A DNA stretch of 12,911 bases from Candidatus Bathyarchaeia archaeon (lineage in GTDB: Archaea > Thermoproteota > Bathyarchaeia > 40CM-2-53-6), in contig JBEKSC010000045.1 in assembly GCA_049517415.1 (NCBI GenBank), forward strand, positions 1 to 12,911. The letters run 5' to 3'. Numbering within the stretch: the first letter of the stretch is position 1; each line of letters opens with the position of its first letter. Shown here piece after piece: positions 2,399-4,500 of this stretch. A program made the position numbers and the translations under genes. The notes beneath the pieces are model-generated. The model did no database searches and was not told the origin of the DNA. It worked only from the letters and a program-made list of their open reading frames with translations.

Positions 2399-3060
2399 AA
2401 ACTCGTTCACGTCAAGTGGGACGTGTGCATGCAATCGTCCCCTTGAACGTTCTCAAAAAATCGAAAGCACGACTTTCACCTATCCTTAGGCCGGCTGAGA
2501 GAGAGCAGTTAACTCTCGCTATGCTGAACGACGTTCTCTCCGCCTTGCGGATGGCGAAGCGGATTCATTCGGTAACGGTTGTTAGCGGCGATAAGAGCAT
2601 GCGTAGAATCTGCAAGCGTCTCGGAGCTAGTTTTCTCTGGGAGGGGAGAAGACGTGGCCTCAACAGGGGGGTCAAATTAGCTGTTAGACACGCTCAGCAG
2701 AGAGGTGCCTCCTCCGTTCTTGTGATTCATTCGGATCTCCCGCTTCTCAAAGCACTGGAAGTTGACACGTTCCTTAAGCGATCCGAGGGATGCTCAGTGG
2801 CGCTTACACCATCCAAAGACCGTGATGGAACTAACGCCCTGCTCATGAGTCCACCACAGGTGATCCGACCAGTCTTTGGCAAAGACAGCTTCCGGAAACA
2901 CCTGTCGCTCGCCAAGCAGAGAAAAGCTCGCAGCAAAGTGTTGCTGTTCAATGGCATTGGTTTCGACGTTGACACGCCAAGGGATGTCGTTGAGTTGATG
3001 CGTCGGCCGTTGCGGAATGAAACCGGACGAGTCCTACGGGCTTTTCGAAAACGGAGTTAG
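2395..3060 (+). CDS. cofC: 2-phospho-L-lactate/phosphoenolpyruvate guanylyltransferase (F420 biosynthesis)
   Basis: AIVP...KSKARLS, AMLNDVL, GLN, SDLP, GTNAL, FGKDSFRKH and DVDTPRD motifs. TTG start overlaps the cofD TGA (TTGA). Confidence 0.93.
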   Translation: MKTRSRQVGRVHAIVPLNVLKKSKARLSPILRPAEREQLTLAMLNDVLSALRMAKRIHSVTVVSGDKSMRRICKRLGASFLWEGRRRGLNRGVKLAVRHAQQRGASSVLVIHSDLPLLKALEVDTFLKRSEGCSVALTPSKDRDGTNALLMSPPQVIRPVFGKDSFRKHLSLAKQRKARSKVLLFNGIGFDVDTPRDVVELMRRPLRNETGRVLRAFRKRS

Positions 3061-3122
3061 CGGTGCGCCGAAAGAGACTCAGGGCAAAGGAATTTAGAGG
3101 CAAGCGGGAGTGTTTGGGTGGG

Positions 3123-4483
3123 GTGTTTGAATTAGCATCACCTAGGGAAAGCCACGATAAAGTGCTCCAGCTTCTGGAGCAGCATACTAAGTGGTTTTCA
3201 GAATCAATTCCGCTGATTGCATCGGAGAACGTTCCCAGCCCCGCGGTTCGCGAAGCCATCATTTCAGACTTCGGGAATCGCTACGCGGAATAGGCAAGCC
3301 GATCAGGCTTCTGCCTCCGTAGGGATGGGTTGGAGAACGCGTATACGCGGGCTGCGTATACATAGACCAAGTTGAGCGGCTCTGCATAGACCTAGCAAAG
3401 GATCTATTCCGAGTCGAATTCGCGGACGTTAGGCCAGTCTCTGGAGTTTGCGCAAACCTCGTGGTCTACACCGCTTTCACAAACCCCGGCGACCGCATGC
3501 TCACTTTGGCTATACCAAACGGCGGCCACATCTCGAGTGGCCGCAAAGATTTCTCTGGAACTGCAGGCTCGGTCCACGGCTTGGAAGTGGAATACTTTCC
3601 CTTCGACCGCCATGAAATGAACATTGACGTCGATAAGGCAAAGCAGAAAATTGAGAAGATGACGAAGGAGGAGAATAAACCGCCCAAGCTTGGGATGTTC
3701 GGTGGGAGCCTCTTCCTCTTCCCCCAGCCCCTGAGGGAGCTAGCTGAGTCGTTACATAATGTTGGTGCGACGGTGGCTTATGACGCGGCTCACGTCGCTG
3801 GGCTCATTGCGGGAGGAATCTTCCAAGACCCGCTGAGGGAAGGTGCTGACGTAGTGTGCCTGAGCACCCACAAAACGCTCTTCGGCCCGCAGGGAGGGGC
3901 GGTACTCTCATTCGAGAAATACGCGGAGCAAATCAAGAAGGCAACGTTTCCATCGAACACGAGCAACCACCATCTGCATAACCTAGCCGGGAAAGCGGTT
4001 GCTTTCGCGGAAATGTTAGAGTTCGGAAAACAGTACGCTAAGCAAGTTGTGGCAAATGCCAAAGCCCTGGGTCAGGCGTTGCATGAACGCGGCCTTAACC
4101 TTCTGGGCGAGCACAAAGGTTTCACTGAAACGCACCAGATCGCCGTTGACGTAACCAAGTACGGCTTGGGTGGAGACATGGAGAGAGCACTTGAAAGCGC
4201 CAACATAATCGTCAATCGCCAACTCTTACCCGGGGACATTCAGGCGGGAAGGCATTACCAAAACCCAGGCGGCATCCGCATAGGCGCCTCGGAGATTACA
4301 AGGATCGGGATGAAGGAAAACCAAATGGTCGAAGTGGCTGAGCTAATCAAAAGAATCGTCATCGACAAGCAAGACCCCAAGAAAGTCAAGGCCGACGTGT
4401 TAGAGTTTAGAAAAGATTTTCAGAAGGTTCACTACTGCTTCGAGAGCGCAAAGAAAGCCTACGAGTACATCAAAGTACGCTAA
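3123..4483 (+). CDS. glyA: Serine hydroxymethyltransferase, archaeal type; join(3123..3290,3323..4483), about 442 aa after removal of a 32-nt intron
   Basis: Exon 1 encodes IPLIASENVPS...SDFGNRYAE. Exon 2 encodes GWVGERVYAGC..., GGHIS, YDAAHVAGLIAG, the PLP-lysine motif STHKT and GIRIG. The halves are in different frames and join seamlessly if 3291-3322 is removed. The start codon is uncertain (GTG 3123 or TTG 3114). Confidence 0.93.
3291..3322 (+). other. Putative bulge-helix-bulge (relaxed, HBh'-like) intron in glyA pre-mRNA
   Basis: Central 4-bp helix GCGG 3285-3288 / CCGU 3317-3320. 3-nt bulges AAU 3289-3291 and AGG 3321-3323. Intronic stem AGGCA 3292-3296 / UGCCU 3312-3316 plus AGCC/GGCU closing a GAUCA loop. 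Cutting after the second nt of each bulge gives GAA|GGA. Confidence 0.85.
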
Positions 4484-4500
4484 CAGGTGCTTATATAACG

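Follow-up and report, generated by a model that had tools for sequence, protein, structure and literature searches.

A 32-nt insert in the serine hydroxymethyltransferase gene glyA of a Bathyarchaeia genome is very probably a relaxed bulge-helix-bulge intron spliced from the mRNA

The 12,911-nt contig JBEKSC010000045.1 of Candidatus Bathyarchaeia archaeon (assembly GCA_049517415.1), hereafter called the window, carries at 3123-4483 of its forward strand the gene glyA, coding for serine hydroxymethyltransferase (SHMT), which is interrupted by 32 nt at 3291-3322. These 32 nt very probably represent a relaxed archaeal bulge-helix-bulge (BHB) intron spliced from the mRNA: assembled metatranscriptome contigs of near relatives join the two exons without them, an insert with covarying helices occupies the same position in related genomes, and genes for the enzymes of BHB splicing are present in the same genome. 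The latter, referred to here as G000, is a 2.65-Mb metagenome bin consisting of 59 contigs, with the window being its contig C45; other genomes, loci and sequencing runs are likewise given by labels of our own.

Translation of frame 1 from 3120 gives ...IASENVPSPAVREAIISDFGNRYAE, which ends with ...SDFGNRYAE and is followed by a stop codon, and the rest of the protein, starting with GWVGERVYAGC..., is read in a different frame from 3323 through 386 codons to the TAA at 4481-4483. The insert hence separates ...NRYAE from GWVGERVY and shifts the frame, which agrees letter by letter with an earlier model-made description of this DNA, made from the letters alone (hereafter the sequence-only reading), where the same 32 nt were quoted as breaking the SHMT motif RYAEG. 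The Pfam SHMT profile matches exon 1 with its positions 4-50 and exon 2 with positions 51-399, so the exons are contiguous at 50|51, and exon 2 alone scores 392 bits with NCBIfam NF000586 (cut-off 335). The open frames of intronless glyA orthologues are about 439-448 amino acids (aa) long, compared to 56 + 386 codons in G000. The flanks, which had been called intact, are so: exon 2 is open over its whole length and is under strong purifying selection, with a ratio of nonsynonymous to synonymous substitution rates (dN/dS) of 0.039 versus genome G014 and 0.038 versus G021.

A search of sequencing runs with 3063-4483 returned 14 DNA runs containing at least 93% of the sampled words and six RNA runs containing 6-14% of them. 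Assembled Logan contigs from four of the RNA runs were compared with 3000-4500 at 90% likeness, and the junction turned out to be covered in two, namely X16 (Illumina, study P15), with a 306-nt contig over the site, and X17 (Nanopore, study P16), with a 1,121-nt contig corresponding to 3120-3290 plus 3323-4231, while X15 and X19 provide no coverage there. Both contigs join 3290 to 3323 (reported as “skips 32, TA..AG”) with zero letters of slack and with shorter-side anchors of 135 and 171 nt, and none of the RNA contigs contains the insert. Transcript sequences spanning the splice junction, proposed earlier as a check, thus exist in assembled form, and the earlier prediction that cutting after the second nucleotide of each bulge removes exactly 3291-3322 is borne out by the 3290|3323 junction, at which SHMT positions 50|51 are restored. 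The X17 contig is about 92% identical to G000, compared to 93.3% for G014 in the same 909-nt stretch, and of 40 listed variant sites it shares 34 with G014, 26 with G021 and 15 with G010. As the G014 DNA carries a 34-nt insert at the glyA site, the X17 contig is most simply read as the transcript, already spliced, of an organism close to G014.

To place the insert among relatives, 40 related genomes were searched with exon 2, and both exons were located by tblastn; one locus, L030, was left out as a 45%-identical paralogue-like sequence. The insert lies exactly between the Glu and Gly codons in 16 of the resulting 29 orthologous glyA loci and is absent from the other 13. It is 25 nt long in one locus, 30 nt in four, 31 nt in two, 32 nt in five, 33 nt in two and 34 nt in two. 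The carriers are 13 genomes of the genus of G000, two genomes of another family (G039 and G031) and one genome of a third family (G038); two genomes of the same genus, G015 and G019, are without it. Among 80 more loci taken from named records there is one further insert at the same site (L037, 34 nt), with none among the returned Nitrososphaeria, Methanomethylicia or Asgard loci. After removal of duplicates there are 17 distinct insert-bearing sequences with 16 distinct inserts, 73 sequences without an insert and one, L052, with an insert at another site. The unspliced frame runs into a stop codon in all 17, including the six with an insert length divisible by three.

An assembly or sequencing artefact, or a recent inactivating insertion such as a pseudogene-forming event or a small mobile repeat, is an extremely unlikely explanation. 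G000 is a metagenome bin with 6.86% contamination, and the glyA frame is broken elsewhere in some relatives (G013, G018 and G019), both of which could be taken to favour it. It is at odds, however, with 16 separately assembled genomes being interrupted at the same site by inserts that differ in sequence, and with the 14 DNA runs containing nearly all the sampled words of the stretch. The exons are, moreover, intact and constrained, and the insert is a single-copy sequence, with no match longer than 13 nt elsewhere in G000. As for the other frame breaks, the glyA genes of these relatives (loci L026, L028 and L029, respectively) each consist of two pieces in different frames with the break further downstream, which is probably due to assembly indel errors unrelated to the intron.

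The geometry of the motif was checked with exon borders set by protein homology alone, the four exon bases preceding the last two exon bases being compared in each of the 17 distinct sequences with the four intron bases preceding the last two intron bases. The central helix is complete (4/4) in 15 sequences and has three of four pairs in two. A complete helix together with at least four contiguous inner-stem pairs right after the bulge is found in 14/17 sequences, versus 20 of 34,000 shuffled inserts. Covariation was assessed on a MAFFT alignment (A1) of 16 sequences, L006 being left out as its insert equals that of L005. The proposed structure has 84.4% of its cells paired (72.6% in shuffles), and both sides have changed at 12 of its 17 pairs; these values were reached by none of 500 shuffles, and when the 3' partner is slid by 1-3 columns the pairing falls to 31-49%. 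Within the intron stem all 11 alignment pairs covary, i.e. both sides are changed in some sequence, and 96.9% of the central helix cells are paired. RNAalifold, with the alignment alone as input, returns the same central helix and stem and a 3-nt 5' bulge. The helix GCGG/CCGU, the bulges AAU and AGG and the intronic stem, as drawn in the sequence-only reading, are all present, and its suggestion that glyA alignments from related genomes should reveal both presence or absence of the insert and covariation of the stems has been confirmed.

The central helix pairs an exon strand with an intron strand, and since its 5' strand consists of codons it is constrained by both the protein and the RNA. 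Compensatory changes across the exon/intron boundary were found in the combinations GCCG/CGGU (G038) and GCAG/CUGC (L037), in each of which the Ala codon has changed silently and the intron has changed to match. Ala-Glu is encoded by GCGGAA in 15 of the 17 intron-bearing sequences versus 11 of the 73 intronless ones; the exon strand of the helix is under constraint.

These compensatory pairs bear on a second alternative, according to which the gap is dealt with at translation, by bypassing (hopping) as in phage T4 gene 60 or by frameshifting. In 13 of 17 sequences the last exon-1 codon is immediately succeeded by a stop codon and then by a hairpin, an arrangement resembling the gene 60 take-off site. 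Still, such an event would leave the 32 nt in the RNA, whereas the RNA contigs are without them; the gap is preceded by GAA, with no matching landing codon at its end; its length varies between 25 and 34 nt, and 4/17 gaps begin without a stop. What is conserved is the BHB geometry with its exon/intron compensatory pairs, which makes handling at translation highly unlikely.

A third alternative is that intron-bearing and intronless alleles coexist in DNA, with the RNA coming from intronless strains and the interrupted copies remaining unspliced, silent or decaying. Intronless orthologues do occur, both within the genus (G015, G019) and in a sister clade (L038-L042, L049, L088 and L089), and the RNA contigs are less than 100% identical to the window. 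Yet G015 is the only genome with 81% or more protein identity to G000 that lacks the insert, and the X17 contig follows the insert-bearing G014 at most of the variant sites. In addition, purifying selection acts strongly on both exons of the interrupted copies (dN/dS about 0.04), and the stems of these copies keep pairing through double changes, unlike what decay would produce. This alternative is very unlikely, and splicing of a BHB intron from the mRNA is the reading adopted below.

Several observations weigh against it. The RNA evidence comprises two assembled contigs of near relatives (about 96% and 92-93% identical), not of G000 itself, and an intronless strain could, strictly speaking, still have been their source. 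The G000 sequence taken alone folds no better than its shuffles (z -1.0), with the minimum-energy fold favouring an alternative CUACG/CGUAG pairing; because the single-sequence fold is not significant, the structural support is comparative and not thermodynamic. In the introns of G016 and G013, one G-A mismatch interrupts the central helix. The outer helix of the strict hBHBh' motif is missing. Of the weak outer helix described in the sequence-only reading, the pair C3284-G3324 stood as the one invariant pair (16/16 sequences), followed by an A-U pair in 4/16; the additional distal pairing of CCAUC 3256-3260 with GAUGG 3324-3328 was rejected, being available in 2/16 intron-bearing sequences with no compensating change. 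With an outer helix of 1-2 bp and no conserved distal pairing, the motif is relaxed and bulge-helix-loop-like, and not a strict hBHBh'. Finally, in a quick maximum-likelihood tree built from 85 distinct exon-2 proteins, with the insert label on 15 rows, L052 included, the label needs at least five gains or losses (the other site of L052 counted). A genus clade of 10 proteins has the insert, with its sister G015 lacking it, L037 stands alone among intronless relatives, G039 and G031 are paired, and G038 is alone. The tree is compatible both with an old presence followed by many losses and with repeated gain at one site.

A second glyA site was found in L052, a Bathyarchaeia gene 67% identical to that of G000, which has a 32-nt BHB-shaped insert (L052:833-864) located 16 nt downstream, inside ...GWPGE|RVY. 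Its predicted helix is CUGG/CCAG with bulges AGA and UUA, its removal restores ...GWPGERVY, and the minimum-energy fold lies in a neighbouring register. Judged from its sequence, L052 has a second, independent intron site in glyA.

The following course of events is proposed. Transcription would start near 3120-3123, and the pre-mRNA would fold so that exon GCGG pairs with intron CCGU, with a 3-nt bulge at either end, the two being located on opposite strands, and the covarying hairpin inside. A two-subunit EndA would then cut at 3290|3291 and 3322|3323, i.e. after the second base of each bulge, and RtcB would ligate the exons, restoring ...RYAE|GWVGE.... Ribosomes on unspliced RNA would halt at the UAG which opens the intron. 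No pointer to a regulatory use was found in the analysis, and we know of no function of the glyA intron itself; most simply, it is a tolerated, heritable element, occasionally lost or gained.

The G000 genome has two EndA-family proteins (PF01974/PF02778), each with N- and C-terminal domains. The one encoded on contig C10 (190 aa) passes TIGR00324 with 84.7 bits (cut-off 59.6) and is closest to PDB 3p1z_B (E 7.5e-39), followed by 3ajv_B, 2cv8_A and 2zyz_B. The one encoded on contig C2 (187 aa) is below the TIGR00324 cut-off, matches “subunit beta” models weakly and below their cut-offs, and is without the GPGIDHAPF-type stretch of the C10 protein, the His of which we take to be catalytic. An RtcB ligase gene with no stops is located at G000:C5:94022-95332 (PF01139, 572.9 bits). 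The C10 protein has Lys/Lys where 3p1z_B has K44 and R46, described in PMC3241643 as two conserved basic residues of a Crenarchaea-specific loop, which gives broad substrate specificity including cleavage of bulge-helix-loop motifs. Judging by its genes, the host appears to encode an alpha/beta EndA whose crenarchaeal-type loop would enable it to cut relaxed motifs; together with RtcB it would thus have what a relaxed mRNA BHB needs, provided that these enzymes are active. The earlier statement that this is a relaxed motif needing a broad-specificity endonuclease fits the vestigial outer helix and these predicted genes. The gene of the EndA beta-like subunit stands head-to-head with an uninterrupted IF-2B/MtnA-family gene (G000:C2:40572-42333).

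BHB motifs had been known in one archaeal mRNA, that of cbf5, before the HVO_1309 leader was added in 2020 (PMC7714728), and these two are the archaeal mRNAs named as spliced by the tRNA endonuclease in the available parts of PMC7714728 and of a 2023 review (PMC10485636), the latter expecting further spliced archaeal mRNAs. The crenarchaeal cbf5 intron occurs in Desulfurococcales and Sulfolobales (Watanabe 2002 and Yoshinari 2006, cited in PMC2738675) and was tied to the relaxed specificity of hetero-oligomeric EndA (Yokobori 2009, PMC2738675). No BHB intron in glyA or a polymerase gene was found in the literature searched, with most subscription journals outside its coverage, which is in line with the sequence-only reading, whose author likewise knew of no intron described in glyA.

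The glyA intron extends the cbf5 kind to a new gene and lineage and has company in the same genome. Like the crenarchaeal cbf5 intron, it is short, interrupts the coding sequence in the protein's most conserved motif, has a BHB-like structure of the relaxed form, is found in a host with a predicted hetero-oligomeric EndA and is patchily distributed among relatives. There is no sequence relation between the two, and glyA codes for a metabolic enzyme whereas cbf5 codes for an RNA-modification enzyme. The cbf5 hosts are hyperthermophilic Crenarchaeota, unlike the glyA carriers, which are Bathyarchaeia of peat, wetland or soil records, and the splicing evidence consists of metatranscriptome contigs for glyA and of reverse transcription PCR and in vitro cleavage for the crenarchaeal cbf5. 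Membership in the cbf5-type intron family proper was considered and rejected, as the host gene is glyA and the cbf5 gene of G000 has a separate 19-nt intron of its own; the mechanism would be the same.

A further relative is the BHB intron in the 5' untranslated region of Haloferax volcanii HVO_1309 (PMC7714728, PMC10485636), likewise an mRNA substrate outside tRNA and rRNA. It lies in an untranslated leader and is served by a homodimeric EndA, whereas the glyA intron interrupts the reading frame, so that splicing is required to make the protein. The BHB introns of archaeal tRNA and rRNA, including the non-canonical tRNA introns of Thermoproteota, share with it the 3-nt bulges, the 4-bp helix, the position of the cut behind the second base of each bulge and the range of sizes, and presumably depend on the same enzymes (Marck and Grosjean 2003, cited in PMC7714728; PMC3241643). 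Unlike tRNA introns, the glyA intron has no tRNA body to aid its recognition, and its outer helix is nearly absent. In the splicing of HAC1/XBP1, by IRE1 and tRNA ligase or RtcB (PMC13149111), a protein endonuclease also excises a small structured mRNA intron, and the exons are joined by a tRNA-pathway RNA ligase, with a change of reading frame. The difference is that the kinase/RNase IRE1 recognises twin stem-loops and not a BHB, and that HAC1/XBP1 splicing is stress-regulated.

Two other genes of G000 appear to be interrupted in a similar way. The CBF5 model matches contig C24 in two pieces (profile positions 5-71 and 70-322) separated by a 19-nt insert at G000:C24:34228-34246 (locus L124), which may form the helix CCCU/GGGG with bulges AGA and UAA. 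It is located at the catalytic motif GTLD|P, and its removal restores ...GGTLDPKVTG.... By its sequence, the insert represents the classic protein-gene intron of archaea, found here in a genome of Bathyarchaeia. In the gene for family-B DNA polymerase (polB), a 24-nt BHB-shaped insert (G000:C46:8896-8919; L123:1597-1620) splits motif B inside a Phe codon, with the two halves matching NCBIfam NF004416 at positions 83-403 and 406-621 and the predicted cut sites being taken from the homology borders. Its minimum-energy fold has the helix GCUC/GGGC, the 5' bulge AUA and four unpaired bases, AAUU, on the 3' side. Among 30 related loci, an insert of 20-26 nt is present in the same Phe codon in 11, the codon is plain in 14, four have no exon-1 match, and one has an odd alignment. 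Seven of the 11 insert loci were caught by the search pattern, all with a 4/4 central helix; the stems of the polB inserts differ between genomes. In the polB gene of G003 (L134, G003:C5) the frame runs straight through a 20-nt insert and changes about 25 codons upstream, with motif B replaced by unrelated residues, which points to an assembly error or else to an unusual variant.

All three G000 introns lie in the most conserved motif of the respective protein, namely NRYAE|G in glyA, motif B in polB and GTLD|P in cbf5. Such placement in conserved motifs is shared with homing elements, from which the G000 introns differ in having no attached endonuclease gene; in the window, no homing endonuclease was found near glyA. 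We lean slightly towards the view that the glyA intron is one of a population of endonuclease-spliced mini-introns situated in the most conserved motifs of Bathyarchaeia housekeeping genes (glyA, polB, cbf5) and repeatedly gained or lost, even at two glyA sites 16 nt apart, with mRNA splicing by the tRNA machinery being routine in this class and the placement hinting at a homing-like or reverse-splicing spread.

G000 was also scanned genome-wide for BHB geometry combined with continuity of the open reading frame across the join. The scan gave 2,884 matches versus 2,927 with a decoy pairing rule, and 53 versus 57 in a compact subset; since the matches are about as numerous as the decoys, it has no statistical power and does not amount to a census. 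It recovered glyA, and polB was picked out by eye from the flanking peptides. Other matches were rejected as gene boundaries: C10:68076 (ilvE-like start) and C24:17515 (rpl4/rpl23-like) by eye, from their motifs, and TrmB|DUF354 and unknown|YtfJ from Pfam. Separately, ARAGORN in its intron mode reported 30 tRNAs in G000, 25 of them flagged as intron-bearing, with several “introns” implausibly longer than 1 kb, and we regard this as a weak hint of intron richness.

With glyA, a central metabolic enzyme of an abundant, uncultivated lineage is added to the very few spliced archaeal protein genes, and the case brings RNA evidence together with clean exon/intron compensatory changes. Gene callers report intron-bearing genes as truncated genes or pseudogenes, so reconstructions of Bathyarchaeia pathways, such as one-carbon metabolism and replication, can be wrong. 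The 16 natural variants offer a set of substrates for asking what lets a broad-specificity endonuclease recognise a BHB that lacks a tRNA body, and with the glyA, polB and cbf5 introns of G000 the origin and spread of archaeal protein-gene introns become testable by comparison.

The features of the interrupted gene are collected in Table 1. With the 5' end of the X17 contig at 3120, the box AATTTAGA about 27 nt upstream and GTG at 3123, the glyA mRNA looks leaderless; the letters beside the start of the contig resemble a cDNA primer. Other in-frame start candidates are GTG 3063 and TTG 3111.

Table 1 Features of the interrupted glyA gene in the window
Feature	Position	Strand	Evidence or remark
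Putative TATA-like box AATTTAGA	3091..3098	+	Predicted from sequence; about 26-28 nt upstream of the 5' end of the X17 cDNA contig (about 3120)
glyA exon 1, 56 codons, ends ...NRYAE	3123..3290	+	Translation; Pfam SHMT 4-50; GTG 3123 is the probable start
Central 4-bp helix, 5' strand GCGG (exon; Ala-Glu codons)	3285..3288	+	Pairs with 3317-3320
5' bulge AAU, predicted cut 3290/3291	3289..3291	+	Unpaired in RNAalifold consensus; RNA contigs end exon 1 at 3290
Very probable BHB intron, 32 nt, in-frame UAG at its start	3291..3322	+	Sequence; skipped exactly in X16 and X17 RNA contigs
Intron stem-loop (helix h'), 3292-3300 with 3306-3316, 2-nt bulge, loop GAUCA	3292..3316	+	Folding, pair counts, RNAalifold
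Central helix, 3' strand CCGU (intron)	3317..3320	+	Border test, pair counts, RNAalifold
3' bulge AGG, predicted cut 3322/3323; outer closure by C3284-G3324 only	3321..3323	+	RNA contigs start exon 2 at 3323
glyA exon 2, 386 codons + TAA	3323..4483	+	Pfam SHMT 51-399; NF000586

A scan of 2900-3700 for group I/II ribozymes or Rfam families, with E values up to 1, returned a single chance-level C/D-box match elsewhere, and a group I/II intron is excluded because 32 nt are far too short. A glyA paralogue at G000:C7:19689-20705 had been listed with one TAA, which is its own terminal stop, and it has no intron. The genes in the window code for a helix-turn-helix regulator, CofD, CofC, the glyA product, a short-chain dehydrogenase, a GNAT acetyltransferase, lipoyl synthase, the E1-alpha, E1-beta and E2 components of a 2-oxoacid dehydrogenase, and an amino-acid permease.

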